Origin: an uncultured Bacillota bacterium
GTDB taxonomy: Bacteria > Bacillota_I > Bacilli_A > RFN20 > CAG-288
Length of the DNA stretch: 64,000 nucleotides
Assembly: GCA_949284445.1 (NCBI GenBank)
Contig: CASDVP010000009.1
Span: 14,609-78,608, forward strand
Reading direction: 5' to 3'
The translations under genes were made by a program, and so were the position numbers. A model generated the notes under the pieces. That model was given only the letters and a program-made list of their open reading frames with translations, did no database searches and had not been told where the DNA came from. Positions 1,661 through 49,077 of this stretch are shown piece by piece. How positions within the stretch are numbered: position 1 is the stretch's first letter; each line of letters begins with the position of its first letter.

Positions 1661-1673
1661 ATTTCACCTCTTT

Positions 1674-7581: not shown

Positions 7582-8069
7582 AATATTTTTGTCCTTTATG
7601 GCATATACTCTACAAAACCAGAACATTTTTGTAAAGAATGACAAAAAAGTAGTTTTTATTTAATTTTTCTATATAAAAACAGTATTGAATTTTAATGTGT
7701 TTAAATAAAAAGAAGTAAAAAAGCCTAAAAATAAATCAAAAGAGAAAAAATATTGATAAAATTAGAAAGCCAAATTTGATTTTAAATTGCTAGCGGTGAT
7801 TGATATTAAATTTCCGGTCTTAAAAATAATTATTAGTAAGCGCTTACACTGATTCATGAATTTTTCTGTTATCAATTCTTAAATTGCGGGTGTTGTTAAT
7901 GCTTTTTTATAAAAAATGAGTATATTTTCGATTATTATTGATATTGAAATGAAAATTATCAGTATTTTTAAATATCTGATATCAAAGAAAAGCAATATCA
8001 CTTGTTATTTTTATAATACTTGGAAATTTTATATACTTTTTTAGTTAACAAAACAAAGGAGTGAAGCTT

Positions 8070-9494: not shown

Positions 9495-9498
9495 TGAA

Positions 9499-11130: not shown

Positions 11131-11135
11131 ATATT

Positions 11136-12818: not shown

Positions 12819-12956
12819 CCTATCAGTTTCACTTGAAGAGTTTCTGATTTTTAAGGCTTCTTTTTGGCTTGTCAAAAATTCAAGAATTGAGCACAAATAC
12901 CTAAAGTAAAAATGAGTTATGTTGTATAATTTAATAGATTAAACGAGGAGAACATT

Positions 12957-32205: not shown

Positions 32206-32206
32206 C

Positions 32207-34848: not shown

Positions 34849-34857
34849 TGATATAAT
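34849..34857 (+). promoter_or_regulatory. Extended -10 promoter element TGaTATAAT about 15 nt before the SIR2-like ORF start. This implies a leader of only a few nucleotides with no SD.
   Basis: ttTGaTATAAT at 34849-57. The ORF ATG is at 34872 and no purine-rich SD lies between them. Confidence 0.45.
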
Positions 34858-34871
34858 AATTTCGTTTAATT

Positions 34872-36176
34872 ATGAAAAAAGAAGAAAGAGAAAATTATAT
34901 ATTTCAAAAGAAGTGCTTATTAGTCTTACTTTTTTTGTTTTATTTAAATGATGTCAGTTATGATGCGATCACTTTAAGGTCTTTTGGATTTCACTTTGAC
35001 CCATCTTGTAACTTTAAAGCGATTGTCAGATCTAAGAAAGATCATATCCATAAATATGTGTGTCATATTTTTAATTCTACTAGCGGCGTCAATTATGAAA
35101 AGCTAGACGTAATGGGCAATGTTAATATTGTCAAAGTAAAAAAGATCGATGGTCAAGAGTTTATTTTTCCCGAAGCATCTTTGAATATTTTTATCGATGG
35201 TGCTGGATTTGTAGCTTTAGGATATATGGAAGGTAAGCAGATCGAATATCGATTAGTAAAGAATAAAAAAGAAGTCACTGATAATCTCTTATATACGCTT
35301 TCTAGTGATGCTTCATTAGATTCTAAAAACTCAACAGCTTCTTCATTTTTATTATGGATATTAAAATTTTATACGACAAAATTACATACTGACTTAGTGA
35401 TGGGCGCTGGTATCAACGAAGATTATGGCGCTAAAAACTGGCCGGGATTAATCGATGCTTTGAACAATGATTTTTATAAAGGCGATTATAAATTTGCTTC
35501 TGAGATTAAGCATTATGTCGGTAAAGAATTGTTCACAGATCCGATGGTGATGAAGACAAGCGGATTCGATCCCTATAAATCTTTAAGCAGAGAACTATAT
35601 CTATTCAAAGAAGCAAAGAGCTTCAATGATTCTGATTCGACATTATCCCATTGTGTGGACTTTATTAAAGCCCATCCACACACCTCAGTCATCACTTATA
35701 ACTATGATACCAATTTAGAATATCTGTTAAGAAAACGCGATATTCATTACAATACAACTTATGATGATAATTCTTTTGTCAATCAAGAAGCGATAGTTGA
35801 TATTTATCATGTGCATGGATTATTGCCGTATGATAAATATGATCAAAAGAAGTTCACAGATTCATTAATATTTAATGAGAGTGAATATTATTATCTATAT
35901 AACAATCCTTATTCTTGGAATATTGCTAAGCAATTGCATGATTTCAAATTTAACACTTGTCTTTTTATCGGCATCTCTCTCACTGATCCAGATATGAAGA
36001 GAATATTAGAATTAGCTAATAATTACTTGAAATTCAACTTTATTTTTTTAAAGAAAGAAAAGAATTATTCGCCGACAGTGTTTAAAGATTTGACTTCTTA
36101 TTATTTCACTTTTGATCTCATCGTCATTTGGATAGATGAATACGAAGACATCGCTAAATATTTAGAGGCTCTATAA
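34872..36176 (+). CDS. SIR2_2-family (defense-type sirtuin/NADase-like) domain protein with an unrecognised N-terminal domain of about 170 aa.
   Basis: Motifs in order: LVMGAGINEDYGAKNWPGLIDAL (the GAG..P.W..L box), SVITYNYDTNLEYLL (the TTNYD-type box with Asn), VDIYHVHGLLP (the HG box with His), and CLFIGISLTDPDMKRIL (the GySxxD box). Confidence 0.7.
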   Translation: MKKEERENYIFQKKCLLVLLFLFYLNDVSYDAITLRSFGFHFDPSCNFKAIVRSKKDHIHKYVCHIFNSTSGVNYEKLDVMGNVNIVKVKKIDGQEFIFPEASLNIFIDGAGFVALGYMEGKQIEYRLVKNKKEVTDNLLYTLSSDASLDSKNSTASSFLLWILKFYTTKLHTDLVMGAGINEDYGAKNWPGLIDALNNDFYKGDYKFASEIKHYVGKELFTDPMVMKTSGFDPYKSLSRELYLFKEAKSFNDSDSTLSHCVDFIKAHPHTSVITYNYDTNLEYLLRKRDIHYNTTYDDNSFVNQEAIVDIYHVHGLLPYDKYDQKKFTDSLIFNESEYYYLYNNPYSWNIAKQLHDFKFNTCLFIGISLTDPDMKRILELANNYLKFNFIFLKKEKNYSPTVFKDLTSYYFTFDLIVIWIDEYEDIAKYLEAL

Positions 36177-37289
36177 ATGGAAAAGACAGATCAGATCAAT
36201 CCGAAATATTTAGATGTTTCACCGATTTCTAAAGGTAAGAGAATGCTAGTTTATCTCGCTGATCTTTTTTTGAATTTTATCATCGCAGTAGTCCTTTTTG
36301 CAGCACTTGTTTATCCGATAGCTAGAGTAATCGCTTCTTCTGATGAAACCGATAAAGCTAGAAGCTTGAATGAACAAGAAAGAATCGATGTTCTTTATAA
36401 TAACGATTTATTAGATTTTGATGAAAATGCCGAATATAAATACGATTTAAATGAGTCTTTAAGATACAGCGCTAATCTTTATCTTTTAGGATTTTTAAAT
36501 GACACATTTTCACCGGATTATTTCAAGACTTTTTATGTCGATTATTTAGGAAATGATTATCAATATTTAAAAGATGCTATTCGTGAAAGAGATGATTATG
36601 ACTTTTTTAATTATGAACAAGAAAAACTGATTTTAAATGATGAATATAAAAACAAATTCATGCCATTACTGGATGAAAATGATCAGCTTTCAAGCACTGC
36701 TCAGGCTGATTACGATCATTTTATAAATAGTTTTTTCGCTCATATTTATTCGGATTTGATGAACGAATTGTTGACTTCAAAAGTTATCACAGAAGTTTCT
36801 CCTTTATACCGATATCGCTTGCTGGATGCTGAAAATAAAAAGATGACAGAGGAAGAGAACATGGTGGCAGTCTATGCTACTTATGTCTCATACTTTTTAG
36901 CATCTATCATCTATTTTTTAGTGGTACCTTTGATATCTAGTAATGGTAAGACCATCGCCATGATGGCGATGAGAACCGAGAGAATCGGTGATAATAATTT
37001 CCAAGTGCTTTCTCGTAAAGAACGGATCATCAACTTTTTATATCAGCTGATATTCGCTTTGCCTTTGATCATGTTTATCCCTGTTATGTATATACCGATA
37101 ACGACTATTTTCAGTCTTCCATACCTTTTATATCTTTCTTTGATTTCACTCGGGTTTGTTTTAATATCTTTTGTGTTTGTTTTCATCAATAGACTTCATC
37201 GCAGTTTAGTAGATTATTTATCAAAGACTATTTTGATATCTAAAGATTTATTAGAACAGATTTATGTCACTAAAGGATATATAAAATAA
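36177..37289 (+). CDS. Membrane protein, RDD-family-like: N-terminal TM, a soluble insert of about 180 aa, and 3 C-terminal TM helices.
   Basis: Its start is coupled to the upstream stop (TAAATG). The N-terminus KGKRMLVYLADLFLNFIIAVVLF fits the R..A..(I)D pattern of RDD proteins. The C-terminal TM helices include FLYQLIFALPLIMFIPVMYIPI and LLYLSLISLGFVLISFVFVFI. Confidence 0.6.
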   Translation: MEKTDQINPKYLDVSPISKGKRMLVYLADLFLNFIIAVVLFAALVYPIARVIASSDETDKARSLNEQERIDVLYNNDLLDFDENAEYKYDLNESLRYSANLYLLGFLNDTFSPDYFKTFYVDYLGNDYQYLKDAIRERDDYDFFNYEQEKLILNDEYKNKFMPLLDENDQLSSTAQADYDHFINSFFAHIYSDLMNELLTSKVITEVSPLYRYRLLDAENKKMTEEENMVAVYATYVSYFLASIIYFLVVPLISSNGKTIAMMAMRTERIGDNNFQVLSRKERIINFLYQLIFALPLIMFIPVMYIPITTIFSLPYLLYLSLISLGFVLISFVFVFINRLHRSLVDYLSKTILISKDLLEQIYVTKGYIK

Positions 37290-38356
37290 TGTCAGAAATG
37301 AGCGTGTATGATGTGAGTCCTAACCGTGAGAAGAAGGTTGACTTGCATGTCCAGTATGTGAGAGCAAGAACTTATAAAAAAGTCTTTGCTAAAATCATAG
37401 ACCTTTTATTGCTTGCCGTTGTAGGCGTTCTTTTATTTGTGGCTACTAGAGCGACTGTTCAAGCTTTTCCTGCTTATCAAAATATCCAAGAGCGCATCAA
37501 CACTACTTTAGAAGATAGTGGAATTTATGTCAAAAATGGTGATGATTTAATCGATTCAGTTGATTATTACAACAGTAAAAAAGATGATTTATCTTCTAGC
37601 GCTTTGATGAACCAAGTAGAAGGTGTTATAAACAAATTCTATTCTTATGTCGATACTTTAGTGACTAAAGGTGATATAAGAAATGAAGATTATCAAAAGA
37701 TGTTATCTGATTATGATGAATTTAGAGAAAAGATCACATATAGTGAAATACATCTTTTTATCAGAGATACAAACGACACTTTGATCCGAAATCCAGATTT
37801 CAGCCGTGAAGAAGAGACATACATGATATATGTTGATAATGTTTATATTCCCTTTATCGATTCATATTTAAGAGGATATTTGCTCACATATTTTCCACAA
37901 TATTTGAAGGACACGGAATTTATGAGCAAGATGATCTTGTTAGTGGAATTACCTATCGCAGTTTTCTTATCAGCGATTTTAGTTTATTTAGTACCACCAT
38001 TGATCTTCAGACGAAACCGCCAGACCATCGGTCGTTTGATCTATAAGATCGGATTGATAAATAATGATTTATTTGCAGTTCCACTGAAGAAGTTTTTGAT
38101 ATATGCAGTTATTGTTATATTTTTAGAAATCGCATTGTCGTTTTTAACTCTAGCCATTCCTTTGATAATCTCTATCTCTCTGATGGCTTTTTCTAAAAAG
38201 AAACAAGACTTTGCTGAATATATGGTTCAGATCCAGCAAGTTGATATTTCAAAAGAGAAGATATATCGCAATAAAGAAGAGTTAGAAGTGGCACATTTGA
38301 AACTCAATCGTGCACCTGTGCAATTTAAAAACATCACATTTGATGAAAATCCATAG
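37289..38356 (+). CDS. Membrane protein, RDD-family-like, paralog of the upstream gene.
   Basis: TAATG overlap with the upstream gene. N-terminus YVRARTYKKVFAKIIDLLLLAVVGVLLF. Same topology: one N-terminal TM, a soluble insert, and 3 C-terminal TM helices. Confidence 0.6.
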   Translation: MSEMSVYDVSPNREKKVDLHVQYVRARTYKKVFAKIIDLLLLAVVGVLLFVATRATVQAFPAYQNIQERINTTLEDSGIYVKNGDDLIDSVDYYNSKKDDLSSSALMNQVEGVINKFYSYVDTLVTKGDIRNEDYQKMLSDYDEFREKITYSEIHLFIRDTNDTLIRNPDFSREEETYMIYVDNVYIPFIDSYLRGYLLTYFPQYLKDTEFMSKMILLVELPIAVFLSAILVYLVPPLIFRRNRQTIGRLIYKIGLINNDLFAVPLKKFLIYAVIVIFLEIALSFLTLAIPLIISISLMAFSKKKQDFAEYMVQIQQVDISKEKIYRNKEELEVAHLKLNRAPVQFKNITFDENP

Positions 38357-38574
38357 TATATGACTAAACATTTGTGTATTTTGCAAAATAGTGTAAAAAA
38401 ATCTATGCGCTTTCATTGTCACAAAGCGTTTGATATGTCCGAAAATGTCGTTATTATGTAAAAAGTCCGTAAAATTAGGTTTTAAAGAATAACAAAAAAC
38501 GCTATAATATTAAGAGAAATCTTTTCTACAGCTCAGCAGATCTTATAGTTATCTATATTATGAGGGATTAGTCA

Positions 38575-40116
38575 ATGAAACGAAAAAAGAACGTGTTGTC
38601 CTCAATTCGTCTACTGTTGGTGTCTCTGTTGCTGATTTGCTTCTTACCATTTAACCTTTCTTTTTCCGACTCTGGTGTTCGTCTTGAAACCGGAAGCGTC
38701 ATAAGAAAAGCTAACGAATCTGATTCTAAGAACAATGGTCTGCAAGAAAATGCATTGCCGTTGACTGATTTAGATCCTGATTTTAAAGCCACAATCACCA
38801 ATCGTTCTTTTACTGATACTTGTCAGTCTTTTTCACTCACTTTTTCTACTGCTACTTCTGAATTTGATTATACATTTGGATACTATGGCGATGGTGCTTT
38901 AGATTTGCCATTGATCCTTCAATACGATGTTTTACTTGCCGATGGTTCTACTGAAACCCGTTCTTTAGAGATAGCTAATTCTAATAGAAATGGTAATTAT
39001 CAGCCGTTAGGTGTGAGTTTTTCTCCTAGATTACCTATGACAGTTGATATCTTACTGACTCCTGGTGAAACAGTTGTTCAAGATAGTTTATTATTCTTCA
39101 ATATATTTACGATTGCTAAATCTACGGTGTTTGATCCGAGTACTAATACTTATCCTTATGTTCCAGGCGAGCAACCATATTTTGTTGATGAATTTGTCTA
39201 TGATGATTTTGCAGAAACAAATGTCGATTTAACTCAATATATCGATGTTAAGTTAGATAATATTTCTACCTTTTTAAATTATGCCTCTATCACTGCGACA
39301 ATCTACAATAATAGCTCACCTTTATATGAAGAACAGATGATAGGTACACCAGGCTTTGTCACAAATCAAGATCGTTTAGAAAGCGGAGACTTCAGATACG
39401 ATTATCAATTTGCTAATCTCATGAATTCCTATTTTATCTTCTATTATGAAGACGGCGAACAATTGAATATCCCGCTTTTGAATAACTCTTTAAACACTTC
39501 TTTTAGAATAAATGAAGGAAACACCACGATACACTTACTAGTTCAAGATATTGATTTCAATGGCTTAACTGGTGTTTCACTTTGTGCAACTAATTTCAAT
39601 ATCGGTATTGTAAATAAAAAATCTTTAGCTGATATAAATAACGCTACTTTCTCTGTCCGTCTCGGTTCACTTTATTTCAATCTCCGTGAAGGACAGACTT
39701 CTATTTATTATATCAATATCGGCATGATCTTATTGATCACATTATTGTGCTTTAGCACTGTATATATATTAGGAATTGTTGGTGCATATTTCTTCTTCAA
39801 GAACAAATATAAAAATGATGAGTTCAAGAGAGTCAATACTAAACAATTCTTTAAGATCAATATCTTAGGTTATCTTGCAGTCACTGTTATCTTGATGGAT
39901 ATTATGATCATCTGTTTCAGAGCTTGCTTATTAGGAAGTGAGCTAGCTATGTATAATCCATTAGATAACTATATAGTTTGCTTATCGATAATCGGAATTC
40001 TCTTCATCGGATACTTTATCAAGTATTTTGTTACTAATATCAAAGCTTACTTAGAAAGAAGAGCAATAAATAAGTTACAGCTTGATAAAGATAAAGCAGA
40101 TGATGGCACAAATTAG
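38575..40116 (+). CDS. Hypothetical secreted/membrane protein with a signal peptide, an extracytoplasmic domain of about 330 aa, and 4 C-terminal TM helices.
   Basis: GAGGGA RBS. N-terminus MKRKKNVLSSIRLLLVSLLLICFLPFNLSFS. It sits immediately upstream of the ABC ATPase. Confidence 0.65.
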   Translation: MKRKKNVLSSIRLLLVSLLLICFLPFNLSFSDSGVRLETGSVIRKANESDSKNNGLQENALPLTDLDPDFKATITNRSFTDTCQSFSLTFSTATSEFDYTFGYYGDGALDLPLILQYDVLLADGSTETRSLEIANSNRNGNYQPLGVSFSPRLPMTVDILLTPGETVVQDSLLFFNIFTIAKSTVFDPSTNTYPYVPGEQPYFVDEFVYDDFAETNVDLTQYIDVKLDNISTFLNYASITATIYNNSSPLYEEQMIGTPGFVTNQDRLESGDFRYDYQFANLMNSYFIFYYEDGEQLNIPLLNNSLNTSFRINEGNTTIHLLVQDIDFNGLTGVSLCATNFNIGIVNKKSLADINNATFSVRLGSLYFNLREGQTSIYYINIGMILLITLLCFSTVYILGIVGAYFFFKNKYKNDEFKRVNTKQFFKINILGYLAVTVILMDIMIICFRACLLGSELAMYNPLDNYIVCLSIIGILFIGYFIKYFVTNIKAYLERRAINKLQLDKDKADDGTN

Positions 40117-40129
40117 GAGATAGGATATT

Positions 40130-42049
40130 ATGGAAATTAAACTTAAGAATCTCACTAAAATCTTCCCAGGAAACCCAAAGAAAAATATCAGAGATACTAT
40201 CGCTGTAAACAATTTGGATTTTGAAGTTCCAGATGGAAAACTGGTTGGATTATTAGGCCCTTCAGGCTGTGGTAAGTCAACTACTCTTTATATGATTTCC
40301 GGTCTATTGAAACCGACTTCTGGTGAAGTTTGGTTTGGTGATCAAGAAGTCACTAATCTTCCGCCTGAAAAGAGAGGTATCGGTTTAGTCTTCCAAAACT
40401 ATGCGTTATATCCTCACATGACCATCTATAAAAACATCGAATTCCCGCTCACTAATTTGAAAGTTGAAGTTCCCTTAGTCGCTTTCTACAAATATGAAAT
40501 CCATTATACATATACGATGCAACCCGATGATGACGTCAAAGGCATTGTCTATGCTATCACTCAGCTCATCAGCCGTATCGGATTAAAAAAGAAAACCTGT
40601 CGTGTCACTTCTAGCGAAGTGGTGAATGGAATATTGAATCTTGTCGTTTTATTAGATGGAGTTTCTCCTGAAAACAAAGAGGTTTTCTTAGAAAACGCTA
40701 AGAAAATTGTTAATTTCGATTCTGTTGAAATTCAAGCAGATCAGGTTTCTGATGCCTTATTCGATGCGAAGGTCAGAGCGGATGTCAATAGAGAAGCTAA
40801 TCCTGATGAAACAGCGACTATAAACTTTATCGGACATTTACCTGAAACCTTCACAACCGATAAGATTGATGAATATATCAAAATTGAATCTGTCGTTATG
40901 TCTAAATTTGGACATATCGAATCCATAACCATTTTCAAATCTAAAACTTGTTATGAAATCGTCGCACGTATCAAGAATGTTAAAACCATATCTTTAGAGG
41001 AATTCAAATCCGAAGTTCAACAGGCTCTTGAATTCACTCAAGTCAGTTTTGGTATCAGCGATGTTTCTAGTAAAACTTTTGAAAAACAAATCAAATTAAA
41101 ATTAAAAGAAAGAAAATGTGTCTATTCTGATTTGAAACTTTATTACGAAGATGAGAAACTCCGTTTCTTCATCATCCTTAAAAAAGCCCCTCGCGATGTC
41201 ATTGATGAAGCTATCAGCTTTATGACTACTGAATTCGGCTTATCAAATGTTAACTCTGAAATCAAAACAGCTATCACTCATCGTAAGCTCACCAAAGAAG
41301 AGAGAAAAGAAATTGTCTATGAGACGGCTAAATTGGTCCAGGTCGAAGAATATTTAGAAAGAAAACCATCTCAATTATCAGGTGGTCAACAACAGCGTGT
41401 CGCTATTGCTAGAGCTCTTGTTAAAAAACCGAAAGTCTTATTATTAGATGAACCTTTATCCAACTTGGATGCCCGTTTGAGGTTGCAGACCAGAGAAGAG
41501 ATCAAAAGAATTCAAAGAGATACTGGTATCACTACCGTTTTCGTCACTCACGACCAAGAAGAAGCTATGTCTATCTCTGATAAAATAGTCGTTATGAAAT
41601 TGGGTGAAGAACAACAGATCGACACTCCTCAAAACGTTTACAATTCACCTGCTAACTTATTCGTCGCTCAATTCTTAGGAACACCGCCTATCAATGTTTA
41701 TAAAGGTCGTGTTGAAAATAAAGTTCTTTATTTAGGAACCGAACCTGTTTATAAACTTGAAAAAGATATCGCCGATCAACCTGTCTATATCGCTATTCGT
41801 CCTGAAGGTATGAACGTCAATCAAGAAAAGCAAGGCGAATACGGCTTCCACGCTGATGTAGAAATGATTCAAGTCTTAGGTAGAGACTTATTTATCGTTG
41901 CTAAGAATGAATTCTGTACTAAGCCGACATTCAAAGCTATCATTTCTGCTGAACAACAGGTCGCTCATGGCAGCATTTTCATCACTCTTAAGCCGAACAA
42001 ATTCTTCATCTTTGATGAAAAGAATGAGCAGAGAATCTATTTAGATTGA
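40130..42049 (+). CDS. ABC transporter ATP-binding protein of the MalK/UgpC/MsmK type, with a roughly 280-aa insertion between the Q-loop and the signature motif and a C-terminal TOBE-like domain.
   Basis: Walker A GPSGCGKST and Q-loop GLVFQNYALYPH lie near residues 45-95. Signature LSGGQQQRVA and Walker B LLLDEPLSNLD lie near residues 415-440. The C-terminus resembles a MalK regulatory domain. AGGAG RBS. Confidence 0.9.
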   Translation: MEIKLKNLTKIFPGNPKKNIRDTIAVNNLDFEVPDGKLVGLLGPSGCGKSTTLYMISGLLKPTSGEVWFGDQEVTNLPPEKRGIGLVFQNYALYPHMTIYKNIEFPLTNLKVEVPLVAFYKYEIHYTYTMQPDDDVKGIVYAITQLISRIGLKKKTCRVTSSEVVNGILNLVVLLDGVSPENKEVFLENAKKIVNFDSVEIQADQVSDALFDAKVRADVNREANPDETATINFIGHLPETFTTDKIDEYIKIESVVMSKFGHIESITIFKSKTCYEIVARIKNVKTISLEEFKSEVQQALEFTQVSFGISDVSSKTFEKQIKLKLKERKCVYSDLKLYYEDEKLRFFIILKKAPRDVIDEAISFMTTEFGLSNVNSEIKTAITHRKLTKEERKEIVYETAKLVQVEEYLERKPSQLSGGQQQRVAIARALVKKPKVLLLDEPLSNLDARLRLQTREEIKRIQRDTGITTVFVTHDQEEAMSISDKIVVMKLGEEQQIDTPQNVYNSPANLFVAQFLGTPPINVYKGRVENKVLYLGTEPVYKLEKDIADQPVYIAIRPEGMNVNQEKQGEYGFHADVEMIQVLGRDLFIVAKNEFCTKPTFKAIISAEQQVAHGSIFITLKPNKFFIFDEKNEQRIYLD

Positions 42050-42059
42050 GGGAGAAAAC

Positions 42060-43130
42060 ATGCAAGAACCGATGCTTCGTGAGCAAAAAAGCTTAACAGC
42101 GGTAAACGATTTCTTTGAAAAACGTCCTCAATATGAGGAGAGTTTTGATCGAGGAAACAACACCATCATCAGGCTTGTCGCTCCCACTAAAGAGAATGCT
42201 AAGCCTTATAAAGTGACTGGTATTCAAGATACGGCTTCCAATAATAATTGGAAAGCTTGGTTATATTTAGGACCAGTTCTCATTTTATTAGTCGTTTTCT
42301 TACTTTATCCGTTGATCAACACCATCTGTATCTCTTTTATGGAAAACTATAGTCAAATCACTGGTCATTCAGATGGGTTTACATTAGATAACTTTGGTGT
42401 TATCTTCGGCATCACTAAAACAGCTGGTGGAGGTTATGAACAGAACTTTTCACAATACGCTATCCCCAATACATTTATTATCGTTATATTAACTGTTCCG
42501 ATTTCTACATTGATCGCTTTATTGATATCAGTAGCCTTAAATTCCTTAAAATGGTTTAAAAAGTTCTTACAAACAGTTTTCTTCTTACCATATGTCACTA
42601 ACGCCATCGCCATCGGTATGGTCTTCTCTGTTATGTTTGATGACTATGGTATTATCAATACCATCTTCAACACTGATATCGTCTGGATTGTTGGTGCTGA
42701 TAGAGCTACGGCTATGATCCCGCTTTGCATCTATATCGTCTGGTCATCGATTCCGTTTAAAATTTTAGTTTTCTTATCAGGGTTACAAGGTATTGATGCT
42801 CAATATTACAATGCAGCTAAGATCGATGGTGCCTCAAAATCTAAAACATTATGGAGAATCACTGTTCCTTTGATGTCACCACAGATTCTTTATATCGTCG
42901 TCACTTCATTCATCGGCGCTTTTAAGGAATATTCTTCAATCGTCGGTTTATTCAATGGGCCTGGTACTATCAACGGTTCTCATAATATGTATACGATTGT
43001 CTACTATATTTATGATAACCTTGCCACTCATACTTCTTATGCGGCAGCTGCAGCTGTCTTCTTATTCGCTGTTATCTTGGTCTTCACTGGTTTACAATTG
43101 TTTGTATCCAAGAAGAGAGTTTACTATTGA
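42060..43130 (+). CDS. ABC transporter permease, MalF/UgpA-like.
   Basis: Six TM helices. EAA-like loop AAKIDGASKSKTLWRITVPL. GAGGGAG RBS. Confidence 0.85.
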   Translation: MQEPMLREQKSLTAVNDFFEKRPQYEESFDRGNNTIIRLVAPTKENAKPYKVTGIQDTASNNNWKAWLYLGPVLILLVVFLLYPLINTICISFMENYSQITGHSDGFTLDNFGVIFGITKTAGGGYEQNFSQYAIPNTFIIVILTVPISTLIALLISVALNSLKWFKKFLQTVFFLPYVTNAIAIGMVFSVMFDDYGIINTIFNTDIVWIVGADRATAMIPLCIYIVWSSIPFKILVFLSGLQGIDAQYYNAAKIDGASKSKTLWRITVPLMSPQILYIVVTSFIGAFKEYSSIVGLFNGPGTINGSHNMYTIVYYIYDNLATHTSYAAAAAVFLFAVILVFTGLQLFVSKKRVYY

Positions 43131-43144
43131 TGGAGGAGAAAGGC

Positions 43145-44131
43145 ATGTCAGAACCTAAAAATTCATTAGCTATGAAAACCTACATCGATTTCTCCGAAGT
43201 CAAAATTAATAACGATATCACTTTATCCTTAGCTGATTCAGGTCAAACTGTGGAAGCTATGAGAAAGAGAGAAAAAGTGACTTCTATCGTTTCCACGATT
43301 ATTCTTTATGCGGTCGTTCTCTTTTTGGCTCTTATCATGATTTTCCCGTTCTATTGGATGATCATCACTTCTTTGAAGAGTAATACCGAAATCGATTATA
43401 TTGAACAGACTATTTATCCTTCTGTTATCATGTGGTCAAACTACGTTTATGTCTTCCAAACATTTGATTTTTTACAATATATGATGAACACCATCATCGT
43501 TGCTATCTTCTCGACGATCGGTACACTCATAACCACGATCATCGCTGCCTTCGCTTTTGCAAGATTACAATTCAAAGGCCGTGAGGCTATCTTCTTAATC
43601 TTCTTGATGACGATGATGATTCCAGGTGAGATGATGGTTATTTCTAACTATATTACAGTCGCCAGTTTCGGTTGGATCGGAAACGGACAGACGAGAATCG
43701 AAGCCTATGCGGCTATGATCGTCCCCTTCTGGATCTCAGTCTTCTACATCTACTTATTAAGACAGAACTTCAAACAGATTCCTAATGAATTATATCTAGC
43801 TGCTAAAGTTGACGGTAAGTCTGACTGGTCATTCTTATGGAGAGTCATGGTTCCCTTAGCAATGCCGACATTGATCTCTATCACCATCTTGAAGTTCATG
43901 GGAACTTGGAATTCTTATGTCTGGCCAAACTTAGTCACTAATGATGTTGACTTCCGTTTGATATCTAACGGTTTAAGAGGCTCAGCATTTACGGATGCGG
44001 ATACTCAGAAGACCTCATACGGTTATCAAATGGCAGCTACAGTTCTAGTCACTGTGCCTCTCTTCTTGCTATTCATCTTCTTCAGGAAGTATATTATGAG
44101 AGGTGTCGGACGTGCAGGTATTAAAGGTTAA
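43145..44131 (+). CDS. ABC transporter permease, MalG/UgpE-like.
   Basis: ATG at 43145 follows a GGAGGAG RBS. The ORF track starts earlier at a TTG overlapping the upstream stop. EAA-like loop AAKVDGKSDWSFLWRVMVPL. Confidence 0.85.
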   Translation: MSEPKNSLAMKTYIDFSEVKINNDITLSLADSGQTVEAMRKREKVTSIVSTIILYAVVLFLALIMIFPFYWMIITSLKSNTEIDYIEQTIYPSVIMWSNYVYVFQTFDFLQYMMNTIIVAIFSTIGTLITTIIAAFAFARLQFKGREAIFLIFLMTMMIPGEMMVISNYITVASFGWIGNGQTRIEAYAAMIVPFWISVFYIYLLRQNFKQIPNELYLAAKVDGKSDWSFLWRVMVPLAMPTLISITILKFMGTWNSYVWPNLVTNDVDFRLISNGLRGSAFTDADTQKTSYGYQMAATVLVTVPLFLLFIFFRKYIMRGVGRAGIKG

Positions 44132-44196: not shown

Positions 44197-45684
44197 ATGA
44201 AAAATCTACTTAAAGTCTTGCCTCTTCTTTCTGTTTTAGTTCTTACTGGATGCGATAATACTTCTAACAATAATCACACAGCTCAACCAGGTGATGAAAA
44301 TTATATAGCCGTGATCGATACACCAGTCGAGATCGAAATTTGGACAACTATCGGTTCTGGTAATCAAACCGCCTTCGATACCATGCTTGATCGTGTGAGA
44401 AGACTTGAACCGAATATCACTATTAAAAATACTTATCAAAACAGTATGGGTTATGATGAGCTTCATGATGCTATTGTTAATGGTTTCCCAGCTAACAATT
44501 ATCCTGATTTAGCTTATTGCTATCCTGATCATGTCGCTGATTATATCAACGCTGGTAAGGCAGTTAATTTAGATACTTATATTAATGATCCTGAAATCGG
44601 ATTATCTGAAGAAGATAAGAAAGATTATTTTGAAAAATTCTTAGCTGAAGGTCAAGAATATACGATTCCTGGTACTTATTCTGTTCCTTTTGCTAAATCA
44701 ACTGAAGCTATGTATTATAGCGGAGCTTTAATCGGTACCGATTTAAGAGGTATTGATCCTACTATTAATAATGGCAAGCCATTAAATGAAGCTTATTTTA
44801 ATGATCTCTCTTGGAGTGAATTATTTGATAAACTCTGTCCTGCTCTCATCAAATATAATGAAAAATTAGCTAATGATGGTAATGATAAAACTAATCCTCT
44901 CATCGACTTAAATGCTAATAGCAACGCTGGTATCGTCGGTTATGACTCTGATGATAACCTCTTCATCACTTTAGCTCAACAATACGGTTATGACTATACT
45001 GATATCGATGAAACTGGTAAGGGTGAGATTCTCTTCAATAATGATGGTATGAAAGAATTATTGATGAAGTTCCATGATTGGGCTAACAAACGTTATATCG
45101 TTTCTCAAGGTACTACTGGTTCTTATACTTCTAATCTTTTTACCGCCAATCAGTGTTTATTCAGTATTTCTTCTACTGCTGGTGTCACTTATTTACATAG
45201 TCAAAACAATCCGGTGGTCAATGTCGCTCCTATTCCACATGCAGAAACTGAATCTGACACTTACAACGCTCAAATCTCTCAAGGACCTTCTTTCTGCGTT
45301 TTAGATAAAGGAAGTGAAGATAGACGTAAGGCTGCTTGGGTGGTTTATAAGTTATTAACTGATACCACTAATAATACTGAATGGTCTATCTCTACTGGTT
45401 ATATGGGTATCAGACAATCTTTCTATGAGACTGCTGAATATAAAGCAGCTTCTAGATTACCCTCTGATGATACTACTCAACAGGCTTTATTAGCTAAAAA
45501 CTGGATTTATTTACCTACTGTCAGTGATAGAGTTTATACTTCGCCTGTTTTCAAAGGTTCTGCCGATGTCAGAGATGCTGCTGGTGGTTTGATGACTAAA
45601 GCTCTTACCAAAGGCGAGTTGACTGAGCAACAGCTTGAAGAGGCTTTTGTCGCTGCTGAAAATGAGGCTAAGAACGCTCTCTAA
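44197..45684 (+). CDS. Solute-binding lipoprotein of the ABC importer (family-1-like SBP).
   Basis: MKNLLKVLPLLSVLVLTGC (LTGC lipobox). AGGAGG RBS. Paralogous to the next gene: AYCYPDHVADYINAG versus AIAYPDHVAEYLAS. Confidence 0.8.
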   Translation: MKNLLKVLPLLSVLVLTGCDNTSNNNHTAQPGDENYIAVIDTPVEIEIWTTIGSGNQTAFDTMLDRVRRLEPNITIKNTYQNSMGYDELHDAIVNGFPANNYPDLAYCYPDHVADYINAGKAVNLDTYINDPEIGLSEEDKKDYFEKFLAEGQEYTIPGTYSVPFAKSTEAMYYSGALIGTDLRGIDPTINNGKPLNEAYFNDLSWSELFDKLCPALIKYNEKLANDGNDKTNPLIDLNANSNAGIVGYDSDDNLFITLAQQYGYDYTDIDETGKGEILFNNDGMKELLMKFHDWANKRYIVSQGTTGSYTSNLFTANQCLFSISSTAGVTYLHSQNNPVVNVAPIPHAETESDTYNAQISQGPSFCVLDKGSEDRRKAAWVVYKLLTDTTNNTEWSISTGYMGIRQSFYETAEYKAASRLPSDDTTQQALLAKNWIYLPTVSDRVYTSPVFKGSADVRDAAGGLMTKALTKGELTEQQLEEAFVAAENEAKNAL

Positions 45685-45742
45685 AAATCATTTAATTTTG
45701 ATTTATTAAAGTAAGCCCATCTGATCAAGGAGGAAATCGCTT

Positions 45743-47155
45743 ATGAAACATGCAAAATTATTATCGTTGGTTGCTCTTCTACCTGTTTTAGGTGGGCTAG
45801 CTTCTTGTAATCGTGCTGCTGATGATACTATTTATTTTTGGCACACATGTGGTCAAACAGTAGTCACTGAGTTAGAAAATAGAATCGAAGAATTTGAACA
45901 ATTAGTTTTAGAAAACGAAGGCAAAGAGATAAATATCAAACTAGACTATCGCGGCAGTTATGATGACATACTTGAATCTATCAGAACGGCTTTTACTACT
46001 GGCGATCAACCGACATTAGCTATTGCATATCCTGATCATGTTGCTGAATATTTAGCTAGTGAGAATACTCCAGGTCAATATGTTGTTGATTTAACAGACT
46101 ATATCAATGATCCTGAAGTCGGCTTTGGAAAAGAAGCTTGGATCGGAGATACTGAGGTTTCTGATTTTGTCGACGCTTTCTATGAAGAAGGTTCTTCTTA
46201 TGGTAGAGAAGGAATTTATTCTCTTCCTTTGATGAAATCGACTGAAGTCATGTATTATAACAAGAACATTGTTTTACCTGAAATAACTAAATATAAGCCA
46301 GAATTAGACACTACTGAAAAGGCTGAAAATTGGCTTAATAATCTATCTTGGGATGAATTTATGGACTTCTGTTATTATCTCAAAAAGAATTATGTGCCTG
46401 CTGGTGTTTCTGAATTTTGGCCTGCTTTTTATGATTCTGATTCCAATATGTATATCACTGCATCTATGCAAAAAGAAATACCTTTCTTAGGATATGATGA
46501 TCAAGGAAAAGGTGAAGTTTTATTTAATAATGCTCAAGCTAAAGAGATGGTTCAGCAATTTAAAACTTGGTATGATGATGGACTTTTCACAACCAAGGGT
46601 GTAGAGGGAAAATACGGGTCTAATTATTTTACTAATATACAATGCTTATTTGACATCGGCTCTTCAGGAGGTGCTGGTTATAATTATCCTGCCGGTGGAA
46701 CTTTTGAGGTCGGTATTTGCCGAGTCCCTGCTTTTAATAACGACAATCGTTTATATGTCACCCAAGGTTTAACAGCGACAGTGTTAAAAGCTGGTGATGA
46801 CTACGATGGTGAAAAAGCTTTATACGGATATAAATTTTTGAAATATTTGACTTCCACTGATGTTAATACTGAACTCTGTATCAATGGTTCAGAAGGCTAT
46901 GTTCCAGTCAGAAAATCTTCGTATGAAACAGCTTTATTTAAAGATTTTTCGAGTAATAACAGATTGATGGTCGGCCAAGTCGCTAATATTGTTGCCAATA
47001 ATATTCAAGGTCATTATTTCAATACTCCTTGTTTTAAAGGTTCTGCTTATGCTAGAGATGCGGTAGGTGGACTATTGTCACAAGTTTTTACCAATAACCG
47101 CACGATAGATGAAGCATTTACCAAAGCTGAAAATGATACTTTAAATCAGATGTAG
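45743..47155 (+). CDS. Second solute-binding lipoprotein, paralog of the upstream gene.
   Basis: MKHAKLLSLVALLPVLGGLASC (LASC lipobox). AGGAGG RBS. Shared blocks with the upstream SBP include TEVMYYN and VLFNNAQAKEMVQQFKTW. Confidence 0.8.
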   Translation: MKHAKLLSLVALLPVLGGLASCNRAADDTIYFWHTCGQTVVTELENRIEEFEQLVLENEGKEINIKLDYRGSYDDILESIRTAFTTGDQPTLAIAYPDHVAEYLASENTPGQYVVDLTDYINDPEVGFGKEAWIGDTEVSDFVDAFYEEGSSYGREGIYSLPLMKSTEVMYYNKNIVLPEITKYKPELDTTEKAENWLNNLSWDEFMDFCYYLKKNYVPAGVSEFWPAFYDSDSNMYITASMQKEIPFLGYDDQGKGEVLFNNAQAKEMVQQFKTWYDDGLFTTKGVEGKYGSNYFTNIQCLFDIGSSGGAGYNYPAGGTFEVGICRVPAFNNDNRLYVTQGLTATVLKAGDDYDGEKALYGYKFLKYLTSTDVNTELCINGSEGYVPVRKSSYETALFKDFSSNNRLMVGQVANIVANNIQGHYFNTPCFKGSAYARDAVGGLLSQVFTNNRTIDEAFTKAENDTLNQM

Positions 47156-47168
47156 TGAGGTGATTGAA

Positions 47169-48545
47169 ATGAAAAAGAATATCTTAAATTGTTTATTAAT
47201 ATTACCAGCGATTATGGTATCGCTCACCACTAGCTGCGCAAAAAAAGATAATTTACCTGCTTGGGTCGATTATATCAACGATCCGACAGTTAAACTGAGC
47301 CTTGATTATAATGATCGCACTTTTATTGAAGATGGTATCGAAGAGGTTTCCTTAGCTACTGCCATCGATGGCGATACAGCTCATTTCAGAACTGCTGATA
47401 ACGATCTGATCAAAGCTCGTTATTATGGTATCGATACTCCTGAAAGCACTGGTAAAGTTCAGCCTTTCGGAAGAGGTGCTTCTAATTTTAATAAAGAAAA
47501 ATTACATGCTGCTGATGAGCACGGTACTATCGTCATCACCAGTGTCAGTGTCGATCAATATGAAGCTCCTGAATTTGATTCTACAGGTGAACGTTATGTT
47601 TCTTTGATTTGGATCAATACTGAAAAAGAGCATGCACCTTCATCTGAGTTGACGCTTCTGAATTTATGGATCGTTCAAGAAGGGTGGTCTGATGTTAAAA
47701 ATGTTAATGATTTACCTGAATATCAAGATATTTTCTATGCTGCCAATCGACAAGCTAGAATCTATAAAAAGAATCTTTATTCAGGTGTAGATGATCCTTT
47801 ATTTAACTATGGTGGCTATGAAGAAGCTATCATTCCTGATATCAGTAAAGAGATTATCGCATCTATGCAGGATGAAAGCCATGTCAATGCCTTTGATGGT
47901 CGAAAAGTCAGATTTAATGGAACAGTTGCTGGCTTGTCTAACAACATCCTTTATTTGACGACTTATGATGAAGAGACAGGTGAAAATTATGGTGTCAATT
48001 TCTTCACTGGAATGGGTGCTGTCGATTCTCGATATACTACTCCTGGTGCTTATCTAGAAGTGTTTGGCTTATGTCAAGATGATGAAAACTTCGGTTTCCA
48101 ATTAACCGATGGTAATTTCAACATCTATTCATCAGCTGATAGCGCTGCTAAAGTTGTCTATGAAGCTAGCGAAAACACTGAATATCCGCTTCATGTCAAT
48201 GAGTTTAAACCTAGTGAATTGGGTGCTGAAGACTATGATGTGCTTAACTGTGCAGTGTCTTTGACCGAAGAAGTTGTTGTCAGCAATTGTTATATCAATC
48301 AAAATACTTATACATTATATTTAGAAGATACTAAAGGTAATCCTTTGGATTTTGATATTTACATTCCATTTACTTATTATTGGAAGCCAGGGGATTATAC
48401 AACTCGTGTTGATGATGCAAGTACCATGATCGGCGAAAAATTCAATCTTTCTCATGGTATCTATACATTCCATAAAACTACTTCCGGTAAAATCAATTGG
48501 CAGATCACTATCTGTAACAATAAAGATTTCTTAGTTGTAGAATAG
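47169..48545 (+). CDS. Lipoprotein with a staphylococcal (thermo)nuclease-like SNc domain and a C-terminal domain of unknown function.
   Basis: ATG at 47169 follows a GTGAGGTG RBS. MKKNILNCLLILPAIMVSLTTSC (TTSC lipobox). The thermonuclease signature is AIDGDTAHFRTADNDLIKARYYGIDTPE, i.e. DGDT..x9..R..GIDTPE. Confidence 0.8.
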   Translation: MKKNILNCLLILPAIMVSLTTSCAKKDNLPAWVDYINDPTVKLSLDYNDRTFIEDGIEEVSLATAIDGDTAHFRTADNDLIKARYYGIDTPESTGKVQPFGRGASNFNKEKLHAADEHGTIVITSVSVDQYEAPEFDSTGERYVSLIWINTEKEHAPSSELTLLNLWIVQEGWSDVKNVNDLPEYQDIFYAANRQARIYKKNLYSGVDDPLFNYGGYEEAIIPDISKEIIASMQDESHVNAFDGRKVRFNGTVAGLSNNILYLTTYDEETGENYGVNFFTGMGAVDSRYTTPGAYLEVFGLCQDDENFGFQLTDGNFNIYSSADSAAKVVYEASENTEYPLHVNEFKPSELGAEDYDVLNCAVSLTEEVVVSNCYINQNTYTLYLEDTKGNPLDFDIYIPFTYYWKPGDYTTRVDDASTMIGEKFNLSHGIYTFHKTTSGKINWQITICNNKDFLVVE

Positions 48546-48562
48546 ATTGAGGGCTAAATGTT

Positions 48563-49036
48563 ATGTATTGTTGTCATTGCGGATATGAACTAAATATCGA
48601 TAAAGTGGAGAAGAATACTGATTCTCACACTTTGTTTGAGGATTCAAATATCGATACGGAAGTGAAGTATGTTTGCCCTCGATGCGGTCATCTGATCCAT
48701 AAACATGTCAATGAACAAGAGATAAAAACTTTATCAGCTGCTAGTCATGCGGAAATACAAAGAGGTCGTAATTTCTTTGCTAATGGCATGTCTCTTAATC
48801 TTGTTGGTGCGATCATCTTATTATTAGCGATCATCTTCTTAGTCTTATCGCATAAACCAGCTAATAATTTTGCTCTTGTCACCGATTGTCCAGAGTTCTA
48901 TGTATCCGTTGTCGCTTTTGTTATCAGTGCGATTCTTATTGGAGTTGGTATGGTACTGACTATTATGGGTGTTCTTAAGAAAACCAAGTACCAACAGCTT
49001 CTTAAGGATATACAAAATCAAGTTTTCTTCCAGTAG
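48563..49036 (+). CDS. Small zinc-ribbon protein with 2 C-terminal TM helices.
   Basis: CHCG and, 33 aa later, CPRCG. Two hydrophobic helices. TGAGGG RBS. Confidence 0.55.
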   Translation: MYCCHCGYELNIDKVEKNTDSHTLFEDSNIDTEVKYVCPRCGHLIHKHVNEQEIKTLSAASHAEIQRGRNFFANGMSLNLVGAIILLLAIIFLVLSHKPANNFALVTDCPEFYVSVVAFVISAILIGVGMVLTIMGVLKKTKYQQLLKDIQNQVFFQ

Positions 49037-49077
49037 TTTAGTTTTTTACATGAGATATCAAAAAAGGAGGATAAATC

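Follow-up and report, generated by a model that had tools for sequence, protein, structure and literature searches.

A predicted lineage-core SIR2_2 enzyme ahead of an RDD pair and a nuclease-linked ABC importer cluster in reduced-genome Bacilli

We describe a 434-aa SIR2_2 protein encoded in a 64,000-nucleotide stretch of DNA from an uncultured Bacillota bacterium (the whole stretch analysed, hereafter the window), where its gene lies ahead of two RDD-type membrane protein genes and an ABC importer cluster. The explanation that we prefer, and hold with about even confidence, is that this protein is an autonomous, lineage-core, NAD-cleaving SIR2 enzyme gated by its own N-terminal domain, which in this subclade heads a nucleic-acid-scavenging importer cluster. 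A preliminary description of the locus had proposed a dedicated defence module of the SIR2 protein with the two membrane proteins. The features on which the analysis rests are collected in Table 1.

Table 1. Features of the SIR2-RDD-importer region, in window positions.
Feature	Position	Strand	Description
Extended -10 element TGATATAAT (TGnTATAAT)	34849..34857	+	14 nt before the SIR2 ATG at 34872
SIR2 protein gene	34872-36176	+	434 aa; SIR2_2 (PF13289) member
Private N-terminal alpha/beta domain of the SIR2 protein	34872..35252	+	residues 1-127 (~130 aa)
SIR2_2 (SIRim-type) NAD-binding catalytic domain, predicted	35253..36176	+	residues 128-434
RDD1, split-RDD membrane protein	36177..37289	+	Pfam RDD 25.3 bits; hydropathy and charge analysis
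RDD2, distant RDD1 paralog, same architecture	37289..38356	+	Pfam RDD 29.3 bits
513-aa exoprotein	38575..40116	+	signal peptide, large extracellular part, three C-terminal TM helices (hydropathy)
Ugp/Mal-type ABC importer	40130..44131	+	639-aa ATPase (insert ~260 aa) and two permeases
Two lipoprotein solute-binding proteins (SBPs)	44197..47155	+	Pfam SBP_bac_8, SBP_bac_1
SNase-family (thermonuclease-like) nuclease, end of importer cluster	47160..48545	+	Pfam SNase 34 bits

Results

The SIR2 protein and its N-terminal domain

A Pfam profile search placed PF13289 on residues 272-388 of the SIR2 protein (51 bits; cut-off 24.5), and the same domain was present in all homologs among the matches listed (at least 120). 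The motifs were located at GAG 178-180, W190, YNYD 276-279 (with N277 and D279), HVHG 313-316, and GISLTD 367-372; G178, A179, G180, N277, D279, and H315, together with all NAD-site residues, showed no variation in any of the 72 family sequences, outgroup included. All the conserved SIR2_2 blocks listed in the preliminary description were found with this invariance, but the order it gave as P.W was inexact, the Trp standing before the Pro (NWPGL). A fold search with the predicted model returned ThsA, KomC, DSR2, SIR2-HerA, and Avs5 as closest, and the fold was nearer to that of ThsA than to classical sirtuins. PADLOC gave weak SIR2-domain matches for the protein, with the ThsA model reaching 24 bits over the SIR2 part only, and gave no matches for its neighbours. 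The ORF at 34872-36176 encodes a genuine SIR2_2 protein, of the immune-type sirtuin fold, with an intact NAD pocket.

The sirtuin Rossmann fold and the conserved Asn and His would also suit a classical housekeeping protein deacylase of the CobB/Sir2 type. This explanation is disfavoured and seems to us highly improbable: the Pfam match was to SIR2_2 and not to SIR2, and the Zn ribbon is absent from the protein, because its sequence contains no CxxC pair. Placement in a housekeeping deacetylase clade, which the preliminary description had named as telling against its proposal, was accordingly not what was found.

The N-terminal domain gave no Pfam or NCBIfam match. AlphaFold2 modelled it as a long hydrophobic helix (residues 3-25) and 6-7 strands, with pLDDT mostly 80-95. 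Neither phmmer, run exhaustively against 1.84e9 representatives, nor a profile search found the domain outside its own family and fragments; matches at E ~1e-4 (P0167-P0169) were rejected as chance, their Pfam content being unrelated. The helix contains 11 consecutive hydrophobic residues, its Y9, K13, K14, L16, and L17 are invariant, and the model places it confidently within the domain. We considered whether it could act as a TM anchor or a signal peptide and judged this unlikely, as the hydropathy peak (1.67) barely exceeded the threshold of 1.6; the helix may still associate with the membrane.

Promoter and gene junctions

The extended -10 element without a Shine-Dalgarno (SD) sequence that had been described ahead of SIR2 was confirmed, with a spacing of 14 nt. 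Direct reading of the sequence between TGATATAAT and the ATG revealed no SD, and transcripts would have a leader of only about 7 nt. An identical element lies 12-20 nt 5' of the SIR2 ATG in loci L001, L002, and L034, and many other orthologs have a -10-like hexamer ending 6-8 nt before the ATG, from which the mRNA would be leaderless. The element was missing from the promoter consensus scan because it lacks a match to the -35 hexamer; terminator and promoter consensus counts in the window were at chance level, and Rfam matches within the window were none. SIR2 usually appears to have a promoter of its own right against the start codon, and in the window's subclade one transcript probably covers SIR2, RDD1, and RDD2.

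The TAAATG and TAATG junctions were read directly from the sequence as had been claimed: TAA 36174-36176 of SIR2 is followed by ATG 36177-36179 of RDD1, and TAA 37287-37289 of RDD1 overlaps ATG 37289-37291 of RDD2. SD-like sites precede RDD1 (AGAGG 36164-36168) and RDD2 (AAAGGA 37272-37277). Overlapping genes are frequent throughout this compact genome, and the coupling of SIR2 to the RDD genes is therefore weak evidence.

The RDD pair

The Pfam RDD profile (PF06271) scored RDD1 at 25.3 bits and RDD2 at 29.3 bits, where the cut-off is 24.1, a marginal result confined to the C-terminal parts of the proteins (profile positions 34-136 only). In both proteins, an acidic insert of ~165-185 aa separates the first TM helix from the 2-3 that follow it. 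In RDD1, TM1 spans residues 27-45 and is followed by an insert of ~185 aa and then three TM helices; in RDD2, the helical insert covers approximately residues 54-205. The insert is probably extracellular. The R..A.D motif was read from the sequence of TM1. The proteins thus share with the RDD family the R...D motif of TM1 and the bundle of C-terminal TM helices, barely above the cut-off, and differ from it in the helical, probably extracellular insert that splits the domain and in their occurrence as an obligate pair beside an ABC importer. One RDD protein has been characterised, a Na+(Li+,K+)/H+ antiporter from Halobacillus andaensis (PMC5996927).

BLASTP revealed no significant similarity between RDD1 and RDD2, and an RDD2-family HMM matched RDD1 orthologs at 1e-6 to 1e-10; by this profile evidence, the two are very distant paralogs. 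RDD1 orthologs adjoin RDD2 in all RDD loci. Pfam, hydropathy, and the RDD2-family HMM together bear out the earlier account of two paralogous RDD-like membrane proteins with a soluble insert, and its coordinates for the three ORFs (34872-36176, 36177-37289, and 37289-38356) and its SIR2_2 and RDD family calls, all above the Pfam cut-offs, were likewise correct. Outside the membrane, the RDD proteins evolve fast (24-45% identity), while SIR2 is conserved. Other exposed proteins of the region are equally divergent (SBP 45% identity, exoprotein 29%), and the fast evolution is therefore not specific to the RDD proteins.

The downstream importer cluster

The 513-aa exoprotein, whose gene is preceded by promoter-like sites at 38430-38508, matched no family in Pfam, PADLOC, or NCBIfam. 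In loci L001, L002, L017, L018, L080, and L083-85, a homolog of 500-714 aa is encoded between RDD2 and the ABC ATPase gene. Pfam recognised the importer ATPase as ABC_tran in two stretches, and BPD_transp_1 was found in orthologs of the importer; its best NCBIfam matches were UgpC, UgpA, and UgpE, all below the equivalog cut-offs, and UgpB was a further top match of the cluster, also below its cut-off. The SBPs weakly matched the Mycoplasma Lipoprotein_X and P68 lipoproteins (below cut-offs), and the top NCBIfam match of the SNase-family nuclease was thermonuclease NucI, again below the cut-off. Another importer-linked nuclease, with an Endonuclease_1 domain, was found in locus L085.

With its UgpC/A/E-like importer, lipoprotein SBPs, and adjacent SNase-family nuclease, the region resembles Mollicute operons of the MG185-189/MPN133-136 type, a likeness drawn from below-cut-off profiles. 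To our knowledge, the RDD pair, the exoprotein, and SIR2 are not parts of Mycoplasma importer operons. In Mycoplasma, nuclease and ABC genes are reported to make up operons for the uptake of nucleotide precursors (PMC12115388).

Gene neighbourhoods

Two samples of neighbourhoods, both without species de-replication, were compared: 79 loci centred on SIR2 and seven centred on RDD, the latter from look-ups of RDD2 homologs. SIR2 and both RDD genes occurred together in 54 of the 79 SIR2 loci, whether co-directional, divergent, or transposed; the co-occurrence of the three genes in other genomes, which the preliminary description had proposed as a check, was thus seen. RDD genes were present, for example, in L013, L014, L021, L027, L028, and L045, and in some genomes the RDD-pair/ABC module is duplicated (L021, L034, L045/46). 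A further 21 orthologous SIR2 loci were without RDD genes, and SIR2, including its N-terminal domain, was unchanged there. In the RDD-centred loci, the exoprotein (500-700 aa) and the Ugp-like importer were adjacent in seven of seven and SIR2 in one of seven; in three lineages (L080, L083, L084), tuf directly precedes RDD1 with no SIR2 between them. In a sister clade, the order HAD phosphatase-SIR2-PsuG-PsuK was found in eight loci, where -1 to 16 nt separate SIR2 from PsuG. Two ORFs of ~300 aa coupled to the solo SIR2 were considered as diverged RDD genes and rejected, as they encode soluble PsuG (PF04227, ~400 bits) and a PfkB kinase. Upstream of SIR2, some loci carry rpsL-rpsG-fusA-tuf, and other neighbours include RNase R/SmpB, TldD/PmbA, CopA, MalQ, and RimO.

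These patterns bear on an alternative that develops the membrane-associated NAD-dependent regulatory module offered in the preliminary description, and in which SIR2 would dock on an RDD1/RDD2 heteromer as an NAD-dependent regulator (through ADP-ribosylation or NAD sensing) of the importer or the envelope. In many loci where SIR2 and RDD1 are co-directional, their tight stop-start junction or overlap has been conserved, and the hydrophobic stretch in the N-terminal helix of SIR2 would fit such docking. In L011, L012, and L053, where the ABC cassette is found upstream, SIR2-RDD1-RDD2 was shifted as one unit, a point in favour of some functional link; SIR2 also remained next to RDD1 when inverted (L003, L004, L007, L033, L060), and the survival of this adjacency through three different rearrangements counts against the explanation that we prefer. 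However, the importer is present in all seven RDD-centred loci but SIR2 in only one, the 21 RDD-free loci retain an unchanged SIR2, one clade couples it to PsuG/PsuK, and gene overlaps are commonplace in this compact genome. A dedicated membrane module is possible, is not favoured, and appears quite unlikely.

Neither Pfam nor PADLOC revealed TIR, SLOG, Macro, HerA, pAgo, or KomA/KomB in the SIR2 protein or in its window neighbours, which are RDD proteins, ABC transporters, and tuf, in agreement with the earlier statement that known SIR2 partners (TIR, SLOG, HerA, pAgo) are absent, and the same searches found no defence genes near SIR2. A defence-island location, which had been raised, was not borne out, as the neighbours of SIR2 are housekeeping genes. 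The proposal that SIR2 and the RDD pair form a dedicated defence module is also unsupported in view of the partition of the RDD genes with the importer, the RDD-free SIR2 loci, and the lack of defence hallmarks.

Evolution and distribution of the SIR2 family

Orthologs of SIR2 are 55-95% identical, the next relative drops to 30%, and the whole family forms a single 50% cluster. The dN/dS of SIR2 (0.018) is the lowest in the gene block (neighbours 0.03-0.12), and its N-terminal domain is highly conserved; SIR2 is under very strong purifying selection. No orthologs were found in viral contigs, plasmids, or phages, and synteny with tuf and other housekeeping genes is maintained across lineages in which tuf is merely 80-91% identical. 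The family thus shows none of the generic hallmarks of defence genes (patchy mobile distribution, location in islands or mobile elements, rapid evolution). Judged from the loci sampled, SIR2 appears to be inherited vertically and to belong to the core genes of a gut lineage of reduced-genome Bacilli (Ca. Enterosoma-like MAGs). The nearest outgroups are defence-like: an Mrr_N-SIR2 fusion (L008), and a locus on a Klebsiella plasmid surrounded by antirestriction, WYL, and TA genes.

The protein could be a fixed (domesticated) immune effector, that is, a chromosomally resident, single-gene abortive-infection NADase in the style of DSR1/DSR2 or SIR2-only systems, whose N-terminal domain would sense infection and for which the RDD pair might optionally serve as a phage-entry sensor. 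The biochemically characterised prokaryotic SIR2_2 proteins are all anti-phage NADases, and the whole SIRim clade, which is enriched in defence neighbourhoods, is regarded in the literature as probably immune (bioRxiv 2024.09.18.613514). The closest folds, the intact catalytic Asn and His, the defence-like outgroups, and the divergence of the RDD extracellular parts beside a conserved effector are consistent with such a role. On the other hand, neither patchiness nor mobility was seen in the viral contigs, plasmids, and phages searched, the housekeeping synteny is long-standing across tuf-divergent lineages, and defence genes are missing nearby; the low dN/dS and the conserved N-terminal 'sensor' are the opposite of an arms race, and the divergence of the RDD proteins is matched by that of the SBP and the exoprotein. 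We consider an immune effector unlikely.

Discussion

The preferred explanation, an autonomous lineage-core enzyme, can be set out as follows. SIR2 would cleave NAD+, as an NADase or in ADP-ribosyl transfer, and its N-terminal domain, by analogy with ThsA, KomC, and FAM118B, may gate this activity through ligand binding or oligomerisation. Its role would lie in core physiology, most plausibly in nucleotide/NAD turnover or growth arrest, and not in mobile anti-phage defence. RDD1 and RDD2 would form a heteromer that serves the downstream importer as a membrane accessory, and would not be dedicated SIR2 partners; the importer cluster, made up of the exoprotein, Ugp-like importer, SBPs, and SNase-family nuclease, resembles the Mollicute nuclease-linked ABC uptake operons.

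SIR2 recurs beside the nuclease-linked importer, PsuG/PsuK/HAD, and RNA-decay genes, and on this ground we put forward, tentatively and with more doubt than confidence, a non-immune reading in salvage or growth control: this may be the first bacterial SIR2_2/SIRim clade recruited to a core non-immune job, as a regulated N-glycosidic/NAD-cleaving enzyme of nucleotide/NAD salvage or growth control in a reduced-genome gut lineage living on scavenged nucleic acids. We know of no established housekeeping role for an NADase-type enzyme, and a literature search found nothing relevant on SIR2 with RDD or SIR2 with pseudouridine. FAM118A/B sets a precedent, being a SIR2_2 clade with vertical inheritance and tight regulation (PMC12700824). 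Compared with these vertebrate SIR2_2 proteins, the present one is bacterial and has a different N-terminal domain, and evidence of filaments or paired paralogs is lacking.

The protein also differs from the known defence systems. Unlike ThsA of Thoeris, it has no SLOG/Macro sensing domain and no TIR ThsB partner, its extra domain is N-terminal and unrelated, its match to the PADLOC ThsA model is limited to 24 bits, and its distribution is vertical, not patchy. KomA/KomB, HerA, pAgo, and a STAND domain, which mark KomC (Kongming), SIR2-HerA (Nezha), SPARSA (SIR2-APAZ/pAgo), and Avs5, are absent here; in contrast to the ~1000-aa architecture of DSR1/DSR2 with its long sensor region, SIR2 has 434 aa and a non-defence context.

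At present, a bacterial SIR2_2 protein is taken for an immune NADase almost as a matter of course. A lineage-fixed SIR2_2 clade under the strongest local purifying selection, in housekeeping and nucleotide-scavenging operons, would have one of two meanings. If the interpretation is right, either bacteria have domesticated an abortive-infection effector fold for core physiology, paralleling vertebrate FAM118, or immunity genes can turn into permanent core genes in reduced genomes. Either meaning would change the reading of 'SIR2 family protein' calls in gut MAGs, and the obligate RDD pair with the exoprotein beside a Ugp-like importer provides a concrete, testable association with nutrient uptake for the poorly understood RDD family.

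Intact SIR2_2 active site behind an orphan N-terminal domain

The three ORFs lie exactly where the preliminary description placed them, and the TAAATG junction and TAATG overlap joining them could both be read directly from the sequence. The proposed family assignments also held: Pfam identified SIR2 as a SIR2_2 protein (51 bits; cut-off, 24.5), and both membrane proteins matched RDD marginally (25.3 and 29.3 bits; cut-off, 24.1). NCBIfam added nothing beyond Pfam for the three proteins, PADLOC returned only weak SIR2-domain matches for SIR2 and no match for its neighbors, and Rfam gave no match across the 64-kb window.

Coordinates of features in the window and in homologous loci (L numbers)
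Sequence	Feature	Position	Strand	Length
Window	Two ABC ATPase-permease fusions	29527-34531	-	898 and 774 aa
Window	Extended -10 element, TGATATAAT	34849-34857
Window	SIR2	34872-36176	+	434 aa
Window	RDD1	36177-37289	+	370 aa
Window	RDD2	37289-38356	+	355 aa
Window	Promoter-like sites 5' of the 513-aa protein gene	38430-38508
Window	Importer ATPase	40130-42049		639 aa
Window	SNase and Big_2/OB-fold protein	47160-52749		1223 aa (Big_2/OB-fold protein)
L008	Mrr_N-SIR2_2 fusion	7224-9005		593 aa
L009	SIR2 neighborhood with NfeD and Band_7	8340-11021
L066	HAD phosphatase to PfkB kinase	9309-13128
L085	Big_2 protein and Endonuclease_1	53-3621

By its sequence, SIR2 is a bona fide SIR2_2 enzyme with intact active-site residues: G178, A179, G180, W190, N277, D279, H313, H315, G316, G367, S369, and D372 did not vary in any of 72 sequences. 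Conservation was strong over the full length, including the N-terminal 170 aa, when 25 homologs were aligned. The protein contains no CxxC pairs and therefore no Zn ribbon. The AF2 model (pLDDT 75, pTM 0.78) featured a well-predicted N-terminal unit, composed of a helix (residues 3-25) and seven strands, followed by a Rossmann domain. In a profile search of PDB sequences, ThsA was the sole match (E 0.25).

An exhaustive phmmer search with residues 1-172 yielded 12 matches among 1.84 billion representatives: one full-length representative of the SIR2 family, eight fragments of that family, and three at chance level. A profile search with residues 1-130 recovered only fragments of SIR2's own family, and five diverse SIR2 N-domains had no Pfam match at relaxed thresholds. 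Homology to the nearest outgroup begins at residue 128; therefore, the private N-domain comprises approximately residues 1-127 and, as judged from these searches, is an orphan.

The extended -10 element reported upstream of SIR2 is perfect, lies 14 nt 5' of the ATG with no SD, and is kept in L001, L002, and L034. In many other orthologs, including L040-L043, L049, L051, L059, L061, L066, L068, and L073, a -10-like hexamer stops 6-8 nt short of the ATG, likewise with no SD, and the SIR2 mRNA is probably leaderless; still other orthologs have an ordinary SD. The family thus seems to have switched between modes of translation initiation, and the promoter elements abutting the SIR2 starts imply that SIR2 usually has its own predicted promoter. 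After RDD2, no terminator-like site was found, and promoter-like sites precede the gene of the 513-aa protein. Because co-directional gene overlaps are common across the compact window, the stop-start coupling only weakly supports a functional link.

The importer is the constant partner of the RDD pair

RDD genes directly adjoin SIR2 in 54 of 79 SIR2 loci (not de-replicated), most commonly in the order fusA-tuf-SIR2-RDD1-RDD2-(exoprotein)-ABC ATPase-permease-permease-SBP(-SBP). In L011, L012, and L053, SIR2-RDD1-RDD2 are instead found downstream of the ABC cassette, and SIR2 and the RDD-ABC block are divergent in L003, L004, L007, L033, and L060. A copy of the RDD-pair/ABC module flanks SIR2 on each side in L045/L046, and an extra RDD pair follows the SBP in L021 and L034. 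The large ABC fusions between tuf and SIR2, which overlap by 17 nt, are confined to the window and to L001, its closest relative; in the other lineages, tuf is immediately 5' of SIR2 or RDD1.

The second of two rival readings is that SIR2 and the RDD proteins form a dedicated membrane module. That the SIR2-RDD1 adjacency survives rearrangements favors it, yet both a sample centered on the RDD pair and SIR2 clades without RDD genes argue against it. The sample comprised seven RDD2 homologs, 33-38% identical to the window RDD2. At all seven loci, RDD1-RDD2 adjoin the same ABC importer together with a homolog of the 513-aa protein that is 500-714 aa long (in divergent orientation in L081), whereas SIR2 was present in only one, L018; thus, it is the importer, not SIR2, that consistently accompanies the RDD pair. 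In L080, L083, and L084, RDD1 directly follows tuf (123-bp gap in L080), and upstream of the pair in L085 lies a Big_2 protein followed by an Endonuclease_1 nuclease. Since tuf of L080 shares only 81% identity with the closest SIR2-linked relatives, its lack of SIR2 reflects a deep lineage split rather than recent gain or loss. The arrangement described for the window is real, but its reading as a new SIR2-RDD defense system is only partly supported.

RDD1 and RDD2 showed no significant similarity by BLASTP; however, an RDD2-family HMM detected RDD1 orthologs (1e-6 to 1e-10), so they are distant paralogs. RDD2 was modeled with good confidence (pLDDT 86): its TM1 is long, its helical insert (~150 aa) contains small hairpins, and a TM bundle lies at the C terminus. 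Hydropathy and charge analysis points to a cytoplasmic N terminus and an extracellular acidic insert. The sole characterized RDD protein is a cation/proton antiporter (PMC5996927).

The importer has UgpA- and UgpE-like permeases and a UgpC/MalK-like ATPase with an insert of ~260 aa, located between approximately residues 113 and 373, that splits ABC_tran into two stretches; ATPase orthologs span 476-658 aa, so the insert varies in size. The two SBPs are lipoproteins that weakly resemble Lipoprotein_X and P68 of Mycoplasma; next come an SNase-family nuclease and a protein with Big_2 and OB-fold domains. Nucleases and giant Big_2 surface proteins flank the importer cluster on a side that differs by lineage, downstream in the window and upstream of the RDD pair in L085, consistent with a surface apparatus that captures and scavenges nucleic acids. 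In Mycoplasma, nuclease and ABC transporter genes are described as sharing operons that serve to take up nucleotide precursors (reviewed in PMC12115388). The window cluster resembles them without proven membership, because all NCBIfam matches were under the equivalog cut-offs.

SIR2 is vertically inherited and lies in housekeeping contexts

RDD genes were absent from 21 orthologous SIR2 loci with sufficient flank, which on the NJ tree fall into two clades, a basal one and a large one. Among these loci, SIR2 has other conserved neighbors: RNase R-SmpB upstream with TldD/PmbA downstream, or ArsR-CopZ-CopA upstream with MalQ-RimO downstream. In eight loci of one clade (L061-L064, L066, L068, L073, and L075), a HAD phosphatase precedes SIR2, and a PF04227 protein of the pseudouridine-5'-phosphate glycosidase (PsuG) family (375-419 bits) and a PfkB kinase, for which pseudouridine kinase was the top NCBIfam match, follow it; the SIR2-to-glycosidase gap is -1 to 16 nt. 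It is unusual to find a SIR2_2 gene inside a nucleoside-catabolism operon. In the Erysipelotrichaceae-labeled lineage (L009, and also L010 and L049), two unannotated proteins of 247 and 128 aa come after SIR2, and then NfeD and a stomatin-like Band_7 protein, a neighborhood that is also membrane-associated and unrelated to RDD.

The best 120 SIR2 homologs were all ~434 aa, 60-95% identical, and labeled as Candidatus Enterosoma, Bacilli bacterium, or Erysipelotrichaceae MAGs; across GTDB and metagenome contigs, orthologs showed 55-95% identity. The next relative, at 30% identity over the region starting at residue 128, is a Lachnospiraceae MAG Mrr_N-SIR2_2 fusion (L008) encoded between a SpoIIE-type phosphatase and thrS, possibly a DNA-sensing SIR2 effector. 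IMG/VR contigs, PLSDB plasmids, and GenBank phages contained no SIR2 orthologs, only partial SIR2-domain matches of ≤43% identity, one of them surrounded by antirestriction, WYL, and TA genes.

For the 14 loci in which the block is complete, identity to the window had a median of 85% for tuf, 71-73% for the permeases, 63% for SIR2, 58% for the ABC ATPase, 45% for the SBP, 38% for RDD2, 35% for RDD1, and 29% for the 513-aa protein. Between the window and L001, where dS is near saturation and dN/dS values are approximate, SIR2 had the block minimum (0.018), compared with 0.03 for the permeases, 0.04 for RDD2, 0.05 for ABC, 0.053 for tuf, 0.07 for RDD1, and 0.115 for the 513-aa protein.

The main rival reading, a lineage-fixed immune effector, draws on the known biology of the SIR2_2 fold and on published work that treats all members of the SIRim clade, the immune-type SIR2_2 sirtuins, as likely immune (bioRxiv 2024.09.18.613514). 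Every evolutionary signature measured here speaks against it. SIR2 has a private N-domain, is under very strong purifying selection, is inherited vertically, lies in housekeeping contexts, and varies in operon membership; the RDD pair consistently accompanies a nuclease-linked Ugp-like importer. We consider that SIR2 would cleave NAD+ under the control of its N-domain, by analogy with the ligand- or oligomer-gated ThsA of Thoeris, KomC (PMC13454610), and FAM118 (PMC12700824), and that it would serve a core role rather than a mobile defense function. We regard SIR2, with its orphan N-domain, as a SIR2_2 protein that has been domesticated or become fixed in its lineage. Its recurring contexts (the nuclease-linked importer, PsuG/PsuK/HAD, and RNase R) suggest, as a lead only, a link to nucleotide or NAD turnover.
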